A DNA stretch of 64,000 nt, taken from the NCBI GenBank assembly GCA_040437565.1, contig JBDOQK010000018.1, positions 434,001-498,000 of the forward strand, written 5' to 3'. The notes beneath the pieces were generated by a model. That model worked only from the letters and a program-made list of their open reading frames with translations. It made no database searches and was not told where the DNA came from. Made by a program: the position numbers and the translations under genes. Positions 2,015 through 11,952 of the stretch are shown piece after piece. This DNA is from Albugo candida (taxonomy: Eukaryota). Each line of letters opens with the position of its first letter. Position 1 is the stretch's first letter.

Positions 2015-3555
2015 ACCAGCCAGCAAGAGTATTTCATAGACGTCAACAAACGACAACACTTTTTACATTCTGAATAAGTCGTTTTTTTTTTNNNNNNNNN
2101 NNNNNNNNNNNNNNNNNNNNNNNNNNNNNNNNNNNNNNNNNNNNNNNNNNNNNNNNNNNNNNNNNNNNNNNNNNNNNNNNNNNNNNNNNNNAGACACGGC
2201 AAAAAATTAGATAAGAAGAGACGAGAAGTTGAGTACATATAAGAGGATATATTCTACTGGATGCAAGACGCTGCCACTGCGGGCCTCAGCAGTTGGTGCA
2301 AAACGACTCAGGATTCAATTACCACAAACGGGATAGACCTAGATCGCATCATGAAGATTCTTAACCTGAACGTAACGAAGCTCAAGCTTCCATCAAGTTT
2401 TCTCGCTAACAACGGTCTCAGCGTGGAGGTTGTGACACAATATGTTTCATCCGCTCACAAGTTTTCTACGACCCATTCTAGAAGCCACAAGAAAGTAGGG
2501 TGTTCTGGTGTTATTATTTTGTAGACCAGCCAGCAAGAGTATTTCATAGACGTCAACAAACGACAACACTTTTTACATTCTGAATAAGTCGTTTTTTTTT
2601 TATTCTGTGGTCAGCGCCAATGGTTTATTCAACATGATAATCCAGATCGAAGAGCAACCAGGAGCCCCAAGTCGATTGTCAGCACTTGAGAGGAAATCGC
2701 TAATGCCTCGGATTTTGAGGAGTGGTGCGAATATATGCGGAAAAAAGGCACCAAATGTTTCCAAAGTGAGGTCATCATTGAAATTTCGTGGGTAGGAAAG
2801 TTGCCAAACCTCTAATTTCGAGATTCGTAGCTTTCCATAGTGCATTCTTTCTCGTCATGACGTGAAAGGCGTGCTCTTGTCCCGCAGTTGCTGCTTCCGT
2901 CAGTTTGGACCTGCATTGTATCATCTCCTCAAGCAATAACTGAGTGTAGAAAAATACGTTTCACAATTCGTGATCAGTAGCTTCCAGAGCATTTATTAAT
3001 TCACAGCATCTGATGTCACAGGTTTTCTTATAGAAATCTGTGTGTGATGGTGCCAGCTTCCAAAAAAAAGGAAACACTACCAGATAACTGCTTCGATTTT
3101 GCATTCTTTCGCTCCACTTTTTGTAAGGTAACTCTAGCAATCACTTGAGGTAAATTTATCTGGGCGAAGAGAGAAGTCCTGATAAATGTGGCTTTGTTAA
3201 TTTGGTATCTGTCTGTTCATGTTCGCTTTTGAACAATTCTCTCTTGCGGAAGAACCAAGAGAATCGGCAGGTTTGTCCTCATTCGAAAGAGCTAATATCT
3301 TATTTAAGAAAAAGGAGTGTCCTGATGCTAATCAACACCGAGTTCTCCGAGCATCATACCTCGTCTTCACGGGCGTATAATTAAGATTAAAATCGGCTAG
3401 TTATTGTGATCTGTGCACCGAGACATAAATAATGCGCACATGCACTACTAATTTCTGATAGCCTCGAAACACCGTATTGCATTCATCGTTAACCTTGTGC
3501 TCTCTAATGAGATGCAACACTTTGTTCTTAGGCACGAGACCTTACTGAGCTATCT

Positions 3556-5161
3556 TCATTCGTTCTGTATCAGCCGTGGGGAGTAAGAAACACCCATCTC
3601 AAAAAACATTTTGTCAGTCAAGACTCGAAATTGTTGCTATATCAATCTTACCAGCGAAATGGATGCGACAATAATTCGTAAAATAAATGATGGATTGTTC
3701 GTTTCCAAAAGCACACTGGCATCACCCGGTTAATTAGATCATAATACTGCACAAATGTTTGATTGAAGGTACCTGTCGGAGAGCAGAAGACCAGAAAATC
3801 CCATGACGAGTGAAATGAGTGCAAGATTGGAATGCTTATGATCACGGAGGACTCTATAAGATGAAATGGCTAAAGCAATTGCGGCAATGCCAAAAGCGGC
3901 TAGCGCAACTTGCTGGTATTGCTTTTTTCAAAAGTATACAAGACAATATCAATGTCTTCCCAACAAAACATGCACAGGCGTGATTACATACCAAGGAAGT
4001 ATCAAACAGTAACACTGACTCTCCTGCTGTGCGCCAAGTCATAGATATTGCGATCCATTTGGCGAAAACTCGATCATCTTTTCGATGCAAATTGTACATG
4101 AATAAGAAGAGCGATACCGCAAAAAGTAGCCAGACTCGTCCTATATCTGCAATGAAGTGGCAATAAAAAATACATGAAAATTTCAAACCGGGAGTGCATA
4201 TGTATACGTACAGGCTACTGGAGGAATTATGTAGCCAAGATTCTCAAAAAAGGTCCAATATTGTGTTAGTAGCCACCGTGTTGACAACACTGGCAGCAAA
4301 GCAATGATGATGCCAGATACGCATATTGAAGGATGTCGCCATGAGCGTCGCTGATAGGTACTCTTTCTTTTAGCATACATAGAGGATGCACCACTTGCTT
4401 CATCTCGGCGTAGAATTTCATATTTGCTCTGACCACCGGTTTGGTAAATTTCCAAGAGCTCTTCCTCTTCAACTTCGGGTTCGCCATTGTAGTTTCGATG
4501 CGTTTTTCTTTGAATTCTGATGCTTTGTGCATTTTCTGGATCACCATTTTGCAGAGTTGTGTTAGCAGCTGCAACATTTGGAGGCTTTGACAATTTTTTT
4601 GTTACTTCTGATTCAAAAATCTCACGCATGTGAGAGCGGTGTTGTCTCGGGGATCGGCGAGTCGGTGTACTTGATTTCGCCGCTGCAGATTCGACATATT
4701 CTCGCGTTTTTGAAGTTCCTCCGTTCAAAGATATGCTATGCTTTTCTTCAAGTAGCAGTGAACTTGAGGAAGATGAAATTCGGCTTCTTCTTGGACTTGG
4801 TGTCTGGCTCCGAATGTGTGATCTCGCCGGGCTTCTGCCCCGTGCTGGGCTCTTTTTCCGCGTACGCGACGGTTTTCGAATCCGAAGAGGCGATCTTTCC
4901 GGAGAAGACTGATCGCTTAGGCTCGCAATGTCCTCTGTTTTCTTTCTTTCTCGTTCAAACGCACGGACGACAGATCCATGACCATCTTTCATCAAATCCA
5001 CACGGCTTTCCCTATTAGCAAATGATATTAGCTTGGTTTGAGATGAGCGTTGATGATACGAACCAAGTATTATTCTCTTCTCCGTATCCTTTCCATTTGA
5101 TCAGGTAGTACACACGATTGTGTCGCATATCACGATCGATAATTCGCTCAATCTTCGGCAT
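3556..5161 (-). CDS. Chromodomain + RS/SP-rich linker + multi-pass YhhN/TMEM86-like membrane domain, ~435 aa, 6 exons
   Basis: Manual splicing gives exons 5161-5064, 5011-4212, 4146-3992, 3921-3773, 3715-3652 and 3597-3556, all GT-AG, total 1308 nt in frame. N-terminus IERIIDR..YYLIKWKGYGEENNTWESRVDL is a chromodomain. The linker contains RKKSPARGRSPARS..PSPRRSR. The C-terminus has hydrophobic helices with WRTAGESVLLF and GFSGLLLSDSVLL. The last exon is least certain (GAG acceptor). Confidence 0.75.
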
Positions 5162-6897
5162 TACGATCAACCGTGCTTGAAAGAGTCTTCTATTATAGAT
5201 GGCAGAGTACCTTCTCGAAGCCAGCAGTTTTATTGACCGTCTAGTATTCATGTCAGCAGCGATCAGGTACATCAGTCTTATTCGGTGCGAAGCAGAGTAC
5301 GATTTAGATGCGTGCAAGGAGTACTTCTGCATGTCTTGCACTCATATGAGCTAGGCCTAAAAAAGACTGTTATGAGGAAGTAAGCAATGCTCCTTTACTT
5401 TTTCCAAATACTGTAAAGTACTATGCGGCAACTCGGTTACTATTCGATACCAAGGAGTGTTTTGATGCGGTTTTGCGCCTAGTTGGATTCACTTTCTTAT
5501 TGATAAACATCACCTTGCAGTCATTACGAAACATTGCTGTTAATACGAGGCAAGAAATGCTAGAAACTCCGCTTTGGCGATAGACATCTACTTAGTATAT
5601 ACACCCGCATTCACACTGATAGTCTCTTGAGCATATAAGGAGCTGATGACCCGAGGGTAAGACGTTTCTGGCTGAAGGATGTGCAACTGCGACAATGNNN
5701 NNNNNNNNNNNNNNNNNNNNNNNNNNNNNNNNNNNNNNNNNNNNNNNNNNNNNNNNNNNNNNNNNNNNNNNNNNNNNNNNNNNNNNNNNNNNNNNNNGTG
5801 TTTTGATGCGGTTTTGCGCCTAGTTGGATTCACTTTCTTATTGATAAACATCACCTTGCAGTCATTACGAAACATTGCTGTTAATACGAGGCAAGAAATG
5901 CTAGAAACTCCGCTTTGGCGATAGACATCTACTTAGTATATACACCCGCATTCACACTGATAGTCTCTTGAGCATATAAGGAGCTGATGACCCGAGGGTA
6001 AGACGTTTCTGGCTGAAGGATGTGCAACTGCGACAATGCGCACCGGTAAACACGAGATTTGGCTTTAGCAACGAAACGTGTGTTACTTACACCAGATTAC
6101 AGGAAGTCTCGAACGTAGCAACATTAAGCGATAATGCCTTCATATTACACTTTCTACAGCGACTTTCGAGTTTTTTTTTTACTTTTCCTGCAAAAAGAAG
6201 ACACCAATCTATCAGCCAGATAAGTTGTGGACCTCGCCATCTACGTCGCTTTGATCAGACCGGACGACGTACATTATCGTGTTAGATGCTTTTAGCTGAT
6301 TTTAATATTGATTTGCTGCAGATACATAGCTAAATAGAGCGGCATCATGAATGCTACATAATATGTACGCGAGAAAGAGTCTTCCTGTCGCTTCTCGCTA
6401 CTCTAGTAGTGTCACAACTCGATAGAGGACAATCTTTCTATGGAATAGCAACTGCATACATGCATAATATAAATACAACTCGTTATCACATCAAGCCTTC
6501 AACAGCTCAAAAGTGACATGTGACCAATGTTTATGGAGTATCTTGACTTGCAATGATGTGTTCAACTGTCGAGCGAAGGTTGAGCATTGTTATCCACTCA
6601 TTTGGCACTCGTCGGTGTTTTATACAGCAATGGCAAGCATATAAAAGCACCGAATACTGGATCTTTCGAATTGGTGCAACTGAGTCACAATGAGGTTGTA
6701 GGCGTTGCCTGTCAGCATATCAACTGGTTGCTATCCTGGACCATCATCCATATAATGCATTTTCCTCTAAAGCAGCTCGCCGAACATATCGGACCCAAAT
6801 GTTTCACTTCATCTACATGCATAGTCTTGTCACAATCCCTGTACAGCAGCTGCCATCTGTTATGTCATCAGTCCATAGTGAGCAAAAGGGTTGATAT

Positions 6898-9800
6898 CTA
6901 AACCCAGAACTTCAATTTCGAGCCCTGCAGTCCAGTGCTATATCGGCCGGTTTTCCTCAAATCATTCTCATGCACATAAATCACTCCAACTTGGTTAACT
7001 TGTGCCCGCATATTGGTCAATTTGACTGTATAGATTCCATTTTCTGGCTGGATAGCCACAACAATACCCGATCCGAAATTAGATGTTTGCACGTTCATTC
7101 CGACCAACGCTTTCAAAGTATACTTGATTGCGTGAAAATCCACTACCCGTGTCTCATCGGTATGATTAATCTTTACAACTGCTACCCCCTTGGCGTGATC
7201 TAGATCAGTGATTGTTCCGGAACCATACGGGGTAACAACAAACTGACCCACAGTACTCCTCTTGGAGACGTATTGCATTGTACTGGAGCAAATCTCGTTA
7301 GACGTTGTCATGGCATGTCGCAACGCATTCGCAAAAAGATTTGTCGATGGAGTTTGTGCTGAGTCGATAGCTAATTCCTTCTCGCCGTTGCTATCCAGTG
7401 GACTAGGTTGTACTGACGACCCTCTTGATGAATTGGATGATATTGTCAGAGAATTTTTTCTGGTACGACTCCTACCTGAAGACGTTAGGAAAGACGGTAT
7501 CTTCTTTACTCTTGCCTGACGATGAATATCCGTTTCGGAAAATACTTGCGCGTTTCTGGTTGGATTTCGTCCGGTACTTGGATCCACAGCAAGCTCTATG
7601 AGATACTTCCGGTCTTTTACCATATACTCAATGACACAACCTTCACCAGCTGGGGTCGTGACCCACTCGTGTCGTAAAGCGGGGATCACATGCATAGTAT
7701 GAGGCGTACGGCAGTACATCATCATAGGCATTGAACCTGCTTGTAATTTTACAATGACGAATATCTCACCTTTGAGGTTGCACGCGACGACAGTACCCAG
7801 CCCGTACTTTGTACTGACCTTGCATCCTGCAGTTAGCATTTGTTCTTCGTGATCGCTGAAAGAGCTGGAAGTTGTTGTGTCCGACGAGCGATCTGATTTT
7901 GGGGTAGGATTCACCTGAAAGATCATTTTGAGTGCTTGCATCCCGCTGTGAAGGTGATCTTTCAAGACCTCGGTAGGAGCTTGTGATGACAGGAATCGGT
8001 CGTTGTCTGAGGCAGATTTAGTACTTGACTTGAGTTCTTTCTCGTTGTAGTCACACCGAGGTGTTGCTGGTGAACTCTCTGGTGTTGCTGGAGTGGAAGG
8101 AAGTGAATCTGTTGTTTTGATGGATGACGACTCGTGGTGCTGCGACAACGTGCTTTCCGAGTAGGCTTCTTCATCTTGATCTGAAGAATTATACTCATTT
8201 ACTATTGAGCGATTACTGTGGCAAGCAAATCCATTCACTTCATGTCGAGGCGTTCCAATGAACATGTCCGACTTCTGCGATTTATCTGATGAGACAGCCT
8301 CCACAGAGTTTAATTTTTTCGGGAACCATTTAGACCATAAATTGCTGCGGTGCACCACGGAGCCGAATTTTGAGTTCAAGTCATGGTCCGTCGACGAACG
8401 GTTACATGAGGTGTCATGACTGGACATAGTCGATGCTCCGTGTGATAAGGTTACATGGTCATCTTGCATACAAGGTGGAGTAGACGAGTGTATTGGCTCT
8501 ATGCGGCTGATATCTTCGTCGACTGATGCTTTTGTTGACTCCGATTCGACTAATACAGTAAGAGCCACTAATCTGGACAATTCTACTGTTCTTAATTTCG
8601 ATGAGCAATAAGAATCGCTACTTGCGTGAAGTGATAGAGTTCGATCGCCGACGGTGAAATGATTCCCTGTTGATTTCGCTGCTCCCGCTCTGTTTGGCTC
8701 ATCATCGCTGAGTTCACGACAAACCTGAAAGCTATCAATTACTGAGCCACCGAGCTTCTTCAACCCCTTGTGTGGCAGCTCGTCTCCTTTTGTTGAAGTC
8801 AAAACAGCAATAGCGGAACTGGTTGTCTCTATGGATAAGCATGAGTGAAATGATTCTAAGCAATCCTCAAGCTTCGCGTCTTCTTCAGTCTGAGTTGAAT
8901 TCTGTAACTGGTTGTCGCATTTTAGGTCCCATCCTTTGAAGACTGTAGATCCAGGAGTTCCTGGCCCGGAATACATTGATTTGGTACTGGAGGGTAACGA
9001 TTCAAGAATTGCTTCGCTGCAATCGGATGACTTAGATGATTGTCCCAGCGCAATATGTGTTGACGTTGACGACACTCTGGGCGTATTAGGATCAGACTGC
9101 GCATCTTTTGTTCCACATATAGTCGAAAATGCTGATAACAGTTTCCAGCCGGTTGAGCTACTTGACGTGAAGGTGTGATTTGGCGTGTTTGGTAACGACG
9201 TTGCTTCTGATTCCGATGATATACTATTAGAATTGACGTCTTGGAGGGAGCGTTTGGAGACATTGATCGATGAACATGAATGGAAAGAATCCGTTGCTTG
9301 ATCACTCGGTGCAACAGTATGTGCTTCGGACCGGTACGAGCGTATTCCCAGTGTATCAGATTCAATAGAATCTGCTATTCCCAAATCAGTTGGTGTCTTT
9401 AAAATCAGGCTGCACTTCGTTGAATCAAATTCAGAATCTACATTTTGCAACCGTTTTGTTCCAAAGAAAGATGCATCATCTGATCCGCCATAATTGTTGT
9501 TTTCTGTTTCAGGAAGTATTGCCAAAGAATTGTTGACAAAGTATGAGCTTACTTCAGCATTTTGCCCCTCGAAAATGAAATCATCAGCATCCAATGTATC
9601 AATCAGGTTTGTGGTCCCCGAATCGATCGCAGAGCTACTGGAGTATGATAGACTTGATGTTGGTAGTGATTTCTTCGAGCATGTCGCTGATTGAGCTATG
9701 TCATCATTTTCAGTCTCGGATTTCGATGTTGGAGTTTGTAGAAATAAAATCGATTTGCTTGGCAGTAAAGAACTGTCTAGTGTTTCTGTTTCAGAGGTGT

Positions 9801-11952
9801 GTGTTGGTTCACAGGAGTCTTCAAACATCTTACCTGTCGATTGAATTGGTGTGGTGGTCGGTAAAGTGGCTATCGTTGTTGTAAACTCATGCAAGATCAA
9901 AACTTGTTCTATGCTACTCCCTTCAATTGGGTTTAGTCGAGCTGTTTTGGGGATTGGCGTCACCAAGCTGCTGATAAGTGAAGTCGTTGTGCTACTTTCC
10001 GAACCCTTTGTTTCAGATTGAGTTACGGAAATTTGAGCCGGCACCTTTGTATCTTCCCGAACAGAAATATCCATTTGATTTTCATCACACGCTACTGCGG
10101 GCTGTAGAGGGGGGTCTATACATAAATGATCTTCTACCATTGTAACACTGTGCCCTCTCTCTCCACAATCTGGACTGCACTGATTCACCTTGGGAGTATC
10201 CGACGGTATTTCTTCACCTTCCTTGTGGCATAATAGAGTTTCATCAGCAGATGATAGGAGTTGTAACTTCGGAGCTATCGAGAAGGTTTCCTCTTGTCTC
10301 ACTGGATTGATGATTTCTTCATCTGGGGGACTCAAAATTTCGCTAAGCTGTGTATTACCTGGTTCCTCTTGTTGTGAACAAGCTGTTCCAGGAGGGTAAA
10401 TTCCCTGCACTTTTGATGGTGCTGTAAAGCCTTCTTGTAGACTGCTCGGTAGCCCGTACGATAAAGTGACATTTTGCTCTACTGCCTGAGTTGGTTCTTT
10501 CAATTCTTCTCTGATAATTGGACGCGCATAGTCAGAAATTGACTTCTTCGAGTCTCTATGACCCCCCTCTCCTTCACTGAAAAGCACTTTTGATAGTCTG
10601 GACCGCATGGGTGCTCCCATTGTCTCCTGCTGAGTCGGTACTATCGAAATTGGATTGGAAGAGCTGTGTGAGGATTCTTGCGTTGCGTAATCCGGGAAAT
10701 TTCCAGTCGCTATTTTATTACAGAATTCCTTCAGTCGCGATTTTTCGAATTTAGTCTCTTCATTTATCGCATTCTTATTCTCAGTGTCCAGATCCATGGT
10801 ACTGATCGTCGATGATTCTCGATCACTTCTCTCTTTCTCACCTCTCGGTATAATAGACATAGCCTGAAGTGGCGAATCGGTAATGTTCCCAGCTCGTGCC
10901 AAATATGCCGCAAGTTTTAAATTGATGGTCTTCGATCCTACAGGTTGTGGCTTGATAGATACGTTGCTTGTATTCGGAGGTGTTTCTTTCACGCTCGTCC
11001 ACTTGTGGCCGACGACGGAAATGACTTTCGGTTCAGAATTTCCGGTAGAGCATACATCTTTTTTCGCCGCTGGACTCGCGCTAATCTGATTCGTTTTGAA
11101 GATAACGCTCATGGTCGGCCCAGATTGCAATCTCGAAGGTGTCAGCACTGGTGCTCCACTGATGTTGTCTTTTCTTCGTCGTCCATGCCGACTAATTGTT
11201 CCCACCAGTGTACAAGACTCGGCTATGGAATTGTCAGCTTCCCGAAAATCATGACGGGCCTTTCCACCACCAACTTTTGATTTTCTTAAGCTCAGCTCTG
11301 AGGGATTGATACTTTTTTTTTGAAGATGCATTAAACTTCCGTCCTGTTGATGTGCTTCTTTTCTTGGTGTGTTGATGGCGGTGGCGCACGGTTGGGTGGT
11401 CATTCTTTCAAATTTCGCTATTCTGGAATTGACAATTGATGGTAGTTTCCTGTCGTGTTTATATCGATCCAGCTTTGGCTGAAGACATGTCGTGTCGATC
11501 GTCTTATTAATTTGGACGTTCCTCTTCCCTCTTTGTTGTGTATCGGCGGGCACACAGACTCTACTCGCTTTCGGATAGATTGTCCTATGTGCTTTATCCG
11601 TGACTATAGTATCAAATCCCATGCCAGCAGCCAGATTGTCTTTACGACTCTCAGCCGTAGACCCACTCGCAATTTCCTCGGCTTGATTATCGGCTCGTCC
11701 AATAATCTGGCTGACGGCTACGGATGGTGGAGGATTCTTTGCAAGAAAAGCTGAAAGCTTCCCTGTAGCACCGACCCTCTCTGTGTTGGTAAATTGTCTC
11801 GATGCTGCGTTTATATTTGACGATGCGCTAGCTCTTTGTAAGAGCGTTGGATATTTGACGCTGATGTCAAACGTATGCGTACTGTTTCTGAACGGTGAGC
11901 TGTCACTACCGAACAAAAGATGCGACTGGATTTACCGACTGTGTTTTTTCAT
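6898..11952 (-). CDS. Large Ser/Thr-rich disordered protein with four C-terminal V-x-T-x-[YFA]-G-x-G-x-[VI] beta-barrel-like repeats
   Basis: 5-kb uninterrupted ORF. Probable start is ATG 11952 (MKKHSR), joined by a 48-nt GTAAAT..CAG intron. Repeats: KVSTKYGLGTVV, WVTTPAGEGCVI, FVVTPYGSGTIT, NVQTSNFGSGIVV. Confidence 0.85.

Follow-up and report, generated by a model that had tools for sequence, protein, structure and literature searches.

A single gene on the minus strand of the 64,000-nucleotide stretch of Albugo candida DNA that was analysed (the window) is expressed as a single transcript and encodes a multi-pass membrane protein, in which an N-terminal chromodomain is joined by a basic linker to six predicted membrane helices. 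The protein is put forward as a candidate tether between chromatin and the nuclear envelope with a membrane domain derived from the YhhN/TMEM86 family; that it acts through the mechanism proposed below is a real possibility, although one that we stop short of calling probable.

To our knowledge, little is known of the means by which chromatin is attached to the nuclear envelope beyond animals, yeasts and plants. The direct readers LBR and CEC-4 are each confined to particular lineages. One conserved gene with a putative histone-mark reader and a multi-pass domain offers a concrete and directly testable tether candidate.

Gene structure and transcription

The gene occupies positions 3556-5161 of the window and consists of six exons and five introns, all of the GT..AG type:

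CDS, 1308 nt, minus strand: 5064-5161, 4212-5011, 3992-4146, 3773-3921, 3652-3715 and 3556-3597, joined
5064..5161, minus strand: exon 1, carrying the ATG (5161-5159); aa 1-33, of which codon 33 contributes its first two bases; encodes the strands at the N-terminal end of the chromodomain
5012..5063, minus strand: intron 1, 52 nt, GT..AG; interrupts the chromodomain within the NTW/E codon; joint in X1 and X4 at 5010/5063 ('cut +1')
4212..5011, minus strand: exon 2, aa 33-300; remainder of the chromodomain, entire linker, membrane helix 1 and start of helix 2
4147..4211, minus strand: intron 2, 65 nt, GTACGT..CAG, phase 1
3992..4146, minus strand: exon 3, aa 300-351; helix 2, HRKDDR loop and helix 3 (W330, W337, R338, G341-E342)
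3922..3991, minus strand: intron 3, 70 nt, GTATGT..AAG, phase 0
3773..3921, minus strand: exon 4, aa 352-401; helix 4, then helix 5 as far as the SD motif
3716..3772, minus strand: intron 4, 57 nt, GTACCT..CAG, phase 2
3652..3715, minus strand: exon 5, aa 401-422; end of helix 5, loop and start of helix 6
3598..3651, minus strand: intron 5, 54 nt, GTAAGA..GAG, phase 0
3556..3597, minus strand: coding part of exon 6, aa 423-435; stop codon TGA at 3556-3558

Translation of the CDS, for which the equivalent intron 1 cut 5063/5010 was used, matches the protein P0001 in every letter, and P0001 is 100% identical to the 435-aa NCBI 'hypothetical protein ABG067_003272' of Albugo candida. All five introns are spliced out exactly within single contigs of two runs, a 1950-nt contig in X1 and a 1548-nt contig in X4; both runs belong to one study, and their run type, 'RNA', is a guess. 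These contigs connect the chromodomain exon with the final membrane exon, showing that the two belong to the same transcript and not to separate genes. The sequence-only reading had proposed an in-frame spliced protein of 435 aa with five introns, and both hold; the four open reading frames from which it built the protein are in fact six exons. The motifs it quoted (MPKIE, RKKSPARGRSPARS, PSPRRSR, TPTRRSPR, AGESVLL and LLSDSVL) are all found in P0001. Contigs of X5 and X6 comprise only short, unspliced pieces covering parts of the gene.

Transcript contigs extend into the 3' UTR at least to position 3450. At the other end of the gene, further ATGs occur in frame upstream of the start codon. 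The site of intron 4 is read through as 'DR[YC]' in 8 unspliced gene models from other oomycetes, and the position of this intron appears to be conserved among oomycetes. The adjacent large ORF at 6898-11931 gave no match to a Pfam family.

Conservation of the fusion in oomycetes

The earlier reading had named a lack of fused orthologues as grounds for refutation; an orthologue check found the fused architecture in Phytophthora, Pythium and further genera, and the proposal survives this test. It is present in Albugo laibachii (63% identity), Pythium oligandrum, Lagenidium giganteum, Peronospora belbahrii and ten named Phytophthora species, and an eleventh, Phytophthora lilii, is represented by a sole model that does not carry the Chromo domain. 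The Pfam Chromo domain was detected in 17 of the 27 family sequences, the remaining 10 being N-terminally truncated or unspliced read-through models. Identity between Albugo and the members from Phytophthora, Pythium, Lagenidium and Peronospora, together with the divergent member P0016, is 52-67% in the chromodomain and 34-39% in helices 3-6, both of which exceed the 18-27% of the linker; both ends of the protein are thus under selection.

The chromodomain

4951..5155, minus strand: chromodomain, aa 3-53, spanning intron 1; Pfam PF00385

The N-terminal chromodomain that was read from the sequence is supported by a PF00385 match to residues 3-53 of P0001 at 49.7 bits (gathering cut-off 25.1, E 3.5e-13), and the exon 1 ORF by itself matches Pfam Chromo with an E of 9.4e-12. 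The structural model (pLDDT 93-96) has strands at 4-13, 16-23 and 32-35 and helices at 36-41 and 45-68, and contains the three-stranded sheet against a C-terminal helix that constitutes the chromodomain fold. Foldseek matched it with a probability of 1.00 (TMt 0.77-0.89, rmsd 1.1-2.0) to the H3K9me3-bound chromodomains of HP1, MPP8, Rhino and CBX proteins. A PDB sequence search with the family profile likewise identified histone readers as the closest solved relatives (CBX5, E 2e-12).

The aromatic cage was mapped using residue identities and numbering that we take to be those of HP1. W23 and Y26 are present in Albugo, position 26 being F in most orthologues, and the first cage position is Pro2, two residues ahead of I4, meaning that the complete three-residue cage is absent from the Albugo protein. 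The earlier remark on the Pro in MPKIE holds, and extends to the family: in the alignment of 17 members this position is non-aromatic in 16, and only P0016 has a Tyr.

The linker

4345..4929, minus strand: basic Ser/Pro/Arg-rich disordered linker, aa 61-255 (~195 aa), with six [ST]P.[KR] sites

An Arg/Ser-rich basic region with candidate phosphorylation sites lies between the chromodomain and the membrane domain. Residues 72-242 have pLDDT values below 50, and aa 56-260 comprise 42 K+R, 48 S+T and 14 P. The six [ST]P.[KR] sites compare with 0.52 in composition-preserving shuffles, of which 0/2000 reached six. Enrichment was observed in all 16 full-length members, with 2-10 sites against shuffle means of 0.2-1.7, and for every member at most 5% of shuffles equalled the observed number. 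Both the composition and this enrichment bear out the description of the linker as RS/SP-rich. The SPxR/TPxR sites match the consensus for CDKs, and they also look like DNA-binding turns of the SPKK type.

Linker length is 183-242 aa in 14 of the 16 members measured; for the other two the regular expression overshot. A simple regular expression for a classical NLS matched 7/16 members (monopartite) and 6/16 (bipartite), with no conserved location. At least one [DE]xxxL[LIV] match, for example DDSVLL or EESVLL, occurs before or at the membrane domain in 15/17 members, although this expression is permissive; motifs of this type can act as endosomal sorting signals. Linkers outside Albugo share the short motifs D-D-S-V-L-L-R-S-T and L-S-Y-E-E-E, which are weak or absent in Albugo.

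The membrane domain and its probable relationship to YhhN

3559..4344, minus strand: six-helix membrane domain, aa 256-435, spanning introns 2-5
4019..4021, minus strand: codon of E342, invariant in 27/27 members; its alignment partner in YhhN is the invariant Asp of the GD motif (E. coli D66)
3775..3780, minus strand: codons of S399-D400; their alignment partner in YhhN is the SD motif (E. coli S171-N172)

The several C-terminal transmembrane helices of the earlier reading correspond to six predicted helices (approximately aa 260-290, 297-321, 326-347, 351-378, 383-406 and 412-432), of which five have a Kyte-Doolittle mean above 1.4. The model of the domain on its own has a pLDDT of 79.6 and a pTM of 0.69. 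D400 is invariant in 27/27 members, and the matching YhhN column is D in 26 of 31 YhhN sequences. R338, E342 and D400 sit inside the membrane and do not vary among members, which suggests that the domain is more than an anchor.

Profile comparison by hhalign against a diverse YhhN profile gave a probability of 79.3% (E 1.6e-5) in one run and of 83-85% (P 6e-6) in another, where reversed controls had P values of 0.08-0.6 and scores of 8-13; both probabilities are suggestive but fall short of the usual 90-95% level. With a YhhN HMM, 26/27 family members scored 5.9-17.9 bits and their reversed copies did not exceed 4.2, these cross-scores being directional. The hhalign signal is seen only with the diverse profile: with a narrow enterobacterial YhhN alignment the P values of 0.11-0.33 were no better than those of reversed controls (0.036-0.062), and among the best 80 of 498 matches a search for related loci with that alignment recovered only close enterobacterial YhhN genes. 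None of the 27 members reached the PF07947 gathering cut-off of 25.6 bits; weak matches at E<=0.1 were found in 13/27, the best with an E of 0.00099, and the Albugo protein searched against Pfam by exon and whole had no YhhN match even at E<=10.

YhhN/TMEM86 proteins have eight predicted helices and eight conserved residues (K, G, D, H, G, S, D and Y) that are proposed to be catalytic, according to the part of PMC11994398 that was available. The oomycete domain has two fewer helices, and its helices 5-6 find their best match in YhhN helices 7-8 (P 0.0038); therefore one hairpin appears to have been lost. E. coli YhhN numbering was mapped onto TMEM86 numbering by motif order, and the eight positions compare as follows. 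The K is replaced by F (in 23/27); the first G by A in 23/27 and kept as G in 4/27; the first D by E in 27/27; and the H by N in 21, A in 2 (including Albugo) and D in 1, with H in 2. The second G is retained in 18/19, the S in 19/19 and the second D in 19/19, while the Y is replaced by A in 15 and S in 4, the alignment at this position being of low confidence. Three of the eight activity-critical residues (K, H and Y) are thus lost.

The proposal that AGESVLL and LLSDSVL resemble the GD and SD motifs agrees with the suggestive profile alignment (79-85%, P ~1e-5, reversed controls at noise level), but membership of the YhhN family is not, since no member passes the Pfam cut-off, there are six helices in place of eight, and K, H and Y are missing. 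From these comparisons there is moderate support for a kinship of the membrane domain with YhhN, and the domain is probably a YhhN relic and not a lysoplasmalogenase.

Searches of other resources were less specific. NCBIfam gave only scattered weak matches across the 27 members (RhaT in 4/27, best 0.0048), the ESM Atlas gave a top feature score of 0.80 to unnamed clusters with no usable named match, and the PDB sequence search returned no YhhN-family chain. Foldseek with the whole and domain-only models found generic helical bundles, with nothing at E<=0.001 (best for the domain 0.18). A candidate internal repeat of helices 3-4 against helices 5-6 was rejected, as its P of 0.2 equalled that of the reversed sequence.

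Proposed role and alternative explanations

The role as a tether is an inference, and the likeness to LBR from which the term 'LBR analogue' derives is one of architecture. The membrane, orientation, ligand, tethering and regulation described here are likewise putative. The N-terminal ~255 aa would lie on the cytosolic or nucleoplasmic side of a protein inserted into the ER, as eukaryotic YhhN proteins are. The nuclear envelope is itself an extension of the ER, and the protein, with an extralumenal part of ~29 kDa, could diffuse to the inner nuclear membrane. There it would be retained by the chromodomain on a methylated histone tail and by the basic linker on DNA or nucleosomes, a retention that would pin chromatin onto the nuclear envelope, and proline-directed phosphorylation of the linker may loosen this grip at division. 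Mammalian TMEM86B is microsomal (available part of PMC3137066). The available part of PMC5630835 reports canonical lamins in oomycetes and a Tudor-LBR fusion limited to Metazoa, which makes a lineage-specific tether plausible. The present sequence and model data would fit residence in the bulk ER or in some other endomembrane just as well as at the inner nuclear membrane. Weighing against a tether are the incomplete aromatic cage, the lack of an NLS match at a conserved place, the acidic-LL matches ahead of or at the membrane domain, and the invariant residues inside the membrane.

The best-surviving alternative is that this is an ER or endomembrane lipid-handling protein (a diverged YhhN-type hydrolase, a lipid sensor or a transporter), the chromodomain and linker of which would form a cytosolic regulatory or protein-binding module off chromatin. 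Chromodomains can serve in this way, as those of chloroplast cpSRP43 bind non-histone partners. The relationship of the membrane domain to YhhN, the retention of S399, G392 and both catalytic acidic positions (E342 and D400), the invariant R338 within the membrane, the incomplete aromatic cage and the acidic-LL motifs of the linker are all consistent with it. However, no other module is as well conserved as the chromodomain (52-85% identity), whose nearest solved relatives are histone readers, the linker is of the SPxR-rich basic kind that characterises proteins of chromatin and the nuclear envelope, and two YhhN helices are absent. Furthermore, K, H and Y are lost from the eight YhhN residues, and in TMEM86A/B the replacement of K, D, D or Y by Ala leaves <10% activity (available part of PMC11994398). 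On balance this explanation is considered unlikely, though by no means negligible.

Improbable too, and distinctly so, is a chromatin factor parked at the ER or nuclear envelope from which signal-triggered cleavage frees a soluble chromodomain-linker reader, in the manner of membrane-bound transcription factors. The long disordered linker does separate a nuclear-type module from a membrane anchor, and its conserved motifs in members outside Albugo could be processing or docking sites; these motifs are nevertheless weak or absent in Albugo, neither a protease site nor a partner was found, and no observation requires cleavage. That an adjacent chromodomain gene and membrane-protein gene were wrongly merged in annotation, as is common for gene models in general and might be suspected from the 10/27 database models that do not carry a chromodomain, is, on the data at hand, refuted by the five in-frame splices within single contigs of two runs, by the one 435-codon open reading frame and by the fusion in 17 independent gene models from five genera plus P0016, the chromodomain-less models being N-terminal truncations or unspliced read-throughs.

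Returning to the chromatin tether, a fuller version is that the family is a convergent oomycete heterochromatin receptor of the inner nuclear membrane built on the LBR plan, with an HP1-type chromodomain with two aromatic cage residues, a phosphorylatable linker and a decayed YhhN/TMEM86 domain. This we advance more tentatively still, as a possibility worth pursuing. A literature search found no paper describing the architecture, containing the orthologue accessions or pairing YhhN with a chromodomain; nothing was found linking a chromodomain, the inner nuclear membrane and Phytophthora, and titles and abstracts show nothing on the family. Should the protein instead be a chromodomain-regulated lipid enzyme, it would represent an unusual non-chromatin use of a chromodomain. 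Either way, a family now annotated only as 'chromodomain protein, putative' or 'hypothetical' would acquire a defined membrane domain.

Comparison with known systems

The likeness to YhhN/TMEM86 proteins lies in a suggestive profile match covering YhhN helices 2-4(5) and, separately, 7-8. In it GE342 coincides with GD, and G392...S399-D400 with G...SD, the distance from G to S being equal in both. The oomycete domain differs in being fused to a chromodomain, a combination with YhhN that appeared in no paper found.

With HP1 and CBX proteins the family has in common a chromodomain similar in fold (TMt up to 0.89) and in sequence (CBX5 E 2e-12). It differs from them in having no chromoshadow domain, in its predicted attachment to a membrane, in a chromodomain that begins at residue 1-3 and in the absence of the first cage aromatic from 16/17 oomycete members.

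At the inner nuclear membrane of C. elegans, the chromodomain protein CEC-4 has been shown to hold methylated chromatin, a role that for the oomycete protein is only proposed. The available part of PMC4783997 reports binding of H3K9me1/2/3 by CEC-4 and a rim location that persists when lamin is missing, and does not mention a multi-pass YhhN-like domain for it. The oomycete chromodomain also differs from that of CEC-4 in the missing first cage aromatic.

In layout the protein resembles the lamin B receptor (LBR) of animals, in which a methyl-lysine reader of the Royal family at the N-terminus is followed by a phosphorylatable basic stretch rich in Arg and Ser and by a multi-pass membrane domain that retains reductase activity. 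Both proteins have the order reader, basic Arg/Ser stretch and multi-pass domain, the last being in the oomycete case also of putative ER lipid-enzyme origin. The reader is however a chromodomain where LBR has a Tudor domain, and a YhhN-like domain of six helices, with lipid-enzyme residues partly lost, takes the place of the ERG4/ERG24 sterol reductase of LBR. The available part of PMC5630835 describes LBR as a Tudor fusion with a C14 sterol reductase part. Pfam searches of the family members gave no ERG4/ERG24 match, Chromo being the only match above its cut-off, and Tudor-knot was found exactly at its cut-off in one member, overlapping the chromodomain. As there is no sequence homology to LBR, any likeness is therefore convergent. 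If the tether role is true, this would be the first fusion of such a reader to a membrane domain outside animals, and convergence would have converted a lipid enzyme to the anchoring of chromatin for a second time, with the same three-part design assembled again.

Gene model and transcription

Stop-to-stop open reading frames and sequence inspection suggested a six-exon gene on the minus strand at 3556-5161. With exon 2 as query, two proteins were recovered at E<=0.01 among 2233 candidates; the identical 435-aa P0001, 'hypothetical protein ABG067_003272 [Albugo candida]', and P0002, a 433-aa protein from Albugo laibachii. The exons joined from the window total 1308 nt and translate to P0001, which contains all of the motifs quoted in the sequence-only reading. 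Four public sequencing runs were mapped onto window 3450-5350. A single contig from X1 (1950 nt) and one from X4 (1548 nt), runs of a single study, each had the five introns precisely spliced out, as that reading had proposed along with a single spliced protein.

Introns of the gene, each GT..AG and absent from the X1 and X4 contigs
5012-5063, minus strand, intron 1, 52 nt
4147-4211, minus strand, intron 2, 65 nt
3922-3991, minus strand, intron 3, 70 nt
3716-3772, minus strand, intron 4, 57 nt
3598-3651, minus strand, intron 5, 54 nt

Runs X5 and X6 gave short unspliced pieces only. The runs are labelled 'RNA?' by guesswork; evidence for the cDNA origin of the two contigs comes from the splices. 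As all five splices lie within single contigs, the chromodomain and membrane exons belong to one processed transcript.

Three in-frame ATGs (5251, 5272 and 5332, minus strand) lie upstream of the annotated start at 5161 with no intervening stop; the X1 contig spans all three and the X4 contig stops at 5237. With a true 5' end further upstream, the protein could gain 30-57 N-terminal residues; the start at 5161 is favoured because orthologues begin at the MP..IERI position. Exact 241-nt copies at 5457-5697 and 5798-6038 flank a 100-N gap (5698-5797) ~300 nt upstream of the start codon. They are most likely unmerged overlapping contig ends from scaffolding rather than a biological duplication, and together with the gap they make the promoter region unreliable. 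Another assembly gap, an N run at about 2000-2150, interrupts ORF 1945-2253. The adjoining open frame at 6898-11931 (minus strand, 1677 codons) is Ser/Thr-rich and matched no Pfam family at E<=0.001.

Relatives in oomycetes

Residues 250-435, scanned against all 1.84 billion representatives, matched 16 proteins at E<=0.001, of which P0011 and P0015 were dropped as repeat proteins and the other 14 belong to the oomycete family; no stand-alone membrane-domain relative outside this family was found at that threshold. A profile search scored 8000 candidates, of which 15 reached E<=0.001, and brought in 11 named species of Phytophthora, including P. infestans, P. sojae and P. cinnamomi, and the Chromo domain is present in all of these except the P. 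lilii model. Pythium oligandrum, Lagenidium giganteum and Peronospora belbahrii are the other named members, and database names in the family, Phytophthora included, are 'chromodomain protein, putative' or hypothetical. In the family alignment A2, the orthologue search suggested earlier returned the same architecture, Chromo (Pfam) plus membrane domain, in 17 of 27 sequences, the remaining ten being short or late-starting; L275, D323, W330, W337, R338, A340, E342 and D400 are invariant. Eight of the ten without Chromo (P0006, P0007, P0008, P0010, P0012, P0013, P0017 and P0028) end in '[SA]DR[YC]' and unrelated residues, matching the LLLSDRY that results in Albugo when intron 4, which follows the SD motif, is read through. 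They are therefore ORF calls with the intron left in, and its position seems to be conserved across oomycetes.

Chromodomain and linker

The proposed N-terminal chromodomain is borne out by Pfam (residues 3-53, 49.7 bits against a cut-off of 25.1), by AlphaFold2 with the 27-sequence family alignment (residues 1-60, pLDDT 93-96) and by Foldseek matches to HP1, MPP8, Rhino, CDY and CBX chromodomains (probability 1.00, TMt 0.77-0.89, rmsd 1.1-2.0), the majority solved with H3K9me3 peptides. PDB sequence searches agree, with CBX5 at E 2e-12 using the family profile. The CBX5 alignment begins at I4, and two residues before this lies the position of the first cage Tyr in HP1 proteins. It is Pro2 in Albugo, a caveat correctly raised from the sequence, and is non-aromatic in 16 of 17 members; of the other cage residues, W23 is retained, as is Y26, which is F in most orthologues. 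Two-aromatic cages occur in other chromodomains, such as that of CHD1, so the oomycete chromodomain may still bind methyl-lysine. The only member with Tyr at the first position, P0016 (363 aa, full architecture), forms a divergent branch with P0014 and may represent an ancestral state with a complete cage.

The linker is modelled at pLDDT <50 (residues 72-242) and is basic and Ser/Pro/Arg-rich (42 K+R, 48 S+T and 14 P in residues 56-260). Its conservation is low (18-27% identity to non-Albugo members), and in the 14 members delimited by the boundary regex it is 183-242 aa long. Albugo has six complete proline-directed sites with a basic residue at +3, [ST]P.[KR], where composition-preserving shuffles give 0.52 (0/2000 reach six); the 16 full-length members all have 2-10, with shuffle means of 0.2-1.7. 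A pattern search found no conservation of classical NLS patterns among members. In alignments A1 and A2, the non-Albugo linkers share FVSRL...D-D-S-V-L-L-R-S-T-I-A-A-L and L-S-Y-E-E-E...V-L-L amid variable sequence. These motifs, weak or missing in the two Albugo proteins, may serve in docking or sorting or form an amphipathic helix.

Membrane domain

The several C-terminal TM helices noted earlier are predicted to be six (~260-290, 297-321, 326-347, 351-378, 383-406 and 412-432); a domain-only model has mean pLDDT 79.6 and pTM 0.69. The Kyte-Doolittle mean exceeds 1.4 in five and is lower in helix 3, which bears R338 and E342. Residues 1-250 contain no hydrophobic window (maximum 0.01) and hence no signal peptide, and the N-terminal 255 aa should lie on the cytosol/nucleoplasm side.

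The suggestion of a YhhN-like (PF07947) domain gained moderate support as remote kinship but not as Pfam membership. P0001 has no Pfam YhhN match at E<=10, and none of the 27 members reaches the 25.6-bit cut-off; weak matches occur in 13/27 (best E 0.00099), the top among membrane families (next cited: MerC, 8/27). With a narrow enterobacterial YhhN alignment, the match was no better than reversed controls. With a diverse profile of 30 genes (match in 29 of 151 sampled Pseudomonadota genomes), hhalign gave a probability of 79.3% (E 1.6e-5, score 43.7, 86 columns), and further runs gave 83-85% (P 6e-6, score 40); four kinds of single reversal score 8-13 (P 0.08-0.6), and double reversal returns to 37.6. 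These probabilities are suggestive but fall short of the usual 90-95%. The YhhN HMM gives 5.9-17.9 bits to 26/27 members (reversed copies <=4.2), and YhhN proteins score at most 23.3 bits with the family HMM (reversed <=0.2); the cross-scores are thus directional. In a split comparison, helices 2-4 of the family match the same-numbered YhhN helices (P 2.8e-5). Helices 5-6, from 19/27 sequences with the eight read-through models left out, best match YhhN helices 7-8 (P 0.0038, score 20.7; alternative on helix 5, 11.1; reversed, 12-13.7). Descent of the membrane domain from YhhN is therefore probable on these profile comparisons, in our reading minus one helical hairpin. The fold is unusable as a kinship test, as the PDB holds no YhhN structure and searches with whole and domain-only models yielded nothing beyond generic helical bundles at noise level.

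The GD/SD pairing drawn earlier is recovered in the alignment, G341-E342 pairing with G-D and the equally spaced G392...S399-D400 with G...S-D. One study (PMC11994398) proposes eight catalytic residues in TMEM86A/B and reports that replacing most of them with Ala leaves <10% activity. The same columns are the most conserved in the diverse YhhN alignment.

Proposed catalytic residues of YhhN and their state in the oomycete family
K: F
G (first): A or G
D (first): E (27/27)
H: N, with A in A. candida and A. laibachii and H in 2
G (second): kept
S: kept
D (second): kept
Y: A or S

The K, H and Y are thus changed, and a canonical lysoplasmalogenase is unlikely; the retained intramembrane E342, D400 and R338 may reflect a residual or changed function.

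Putative function

The earlier statement that this architecture is undescribed agrees with our searches of open-access papers and preprints, in which none was found citing the orthologue accessions, pairing YhhN with a chromodomain, or treating chromodomain, inner nuclear membrane and Phytophthora together; such work may be in print elsewhere. The text of a survey of chromatin-protein evolution has no mention of 'transmembrane', 'YhhN' or 'nuclear envelope'.

The best-supported reading, held tentatively, is a candidate chromatin tether at the inner nuclear membrane. It is suggested by the architecture, by conservation of the two end modules, and by the ER residence of mammalian TMEM86B (PMC3137066) and the presence of lamins without a Tudor-LBR in oomycetes (PMC5630835). 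The protein would be inserted in the ER and retained at the inner nuclear membrane via chromatin binding, and linker phosphorylation would loosen this hold. The reading is weakened by the incomplete cage, the lack of a conserved classical NLS and the acidic-LL motifs of the linker, possible endosomal signals. A lipid protein of the endomembranes whose chromodomain does not act on chromatin is a less likely explanation, and a cleavable membrane-tethered chromatin factor is unlikely. An annotation artefact is scarcely credible for exons found joined in two contigs.

The tether at the inner nuclear membrane is also favoured by precedent. We hypothesise that the reader-linker-lipid-enzyme design serves as a tether, a function for which the C. 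elegans chromodomain anchor CEC-4 (PMC4783997) and animal LBR are the precedents.
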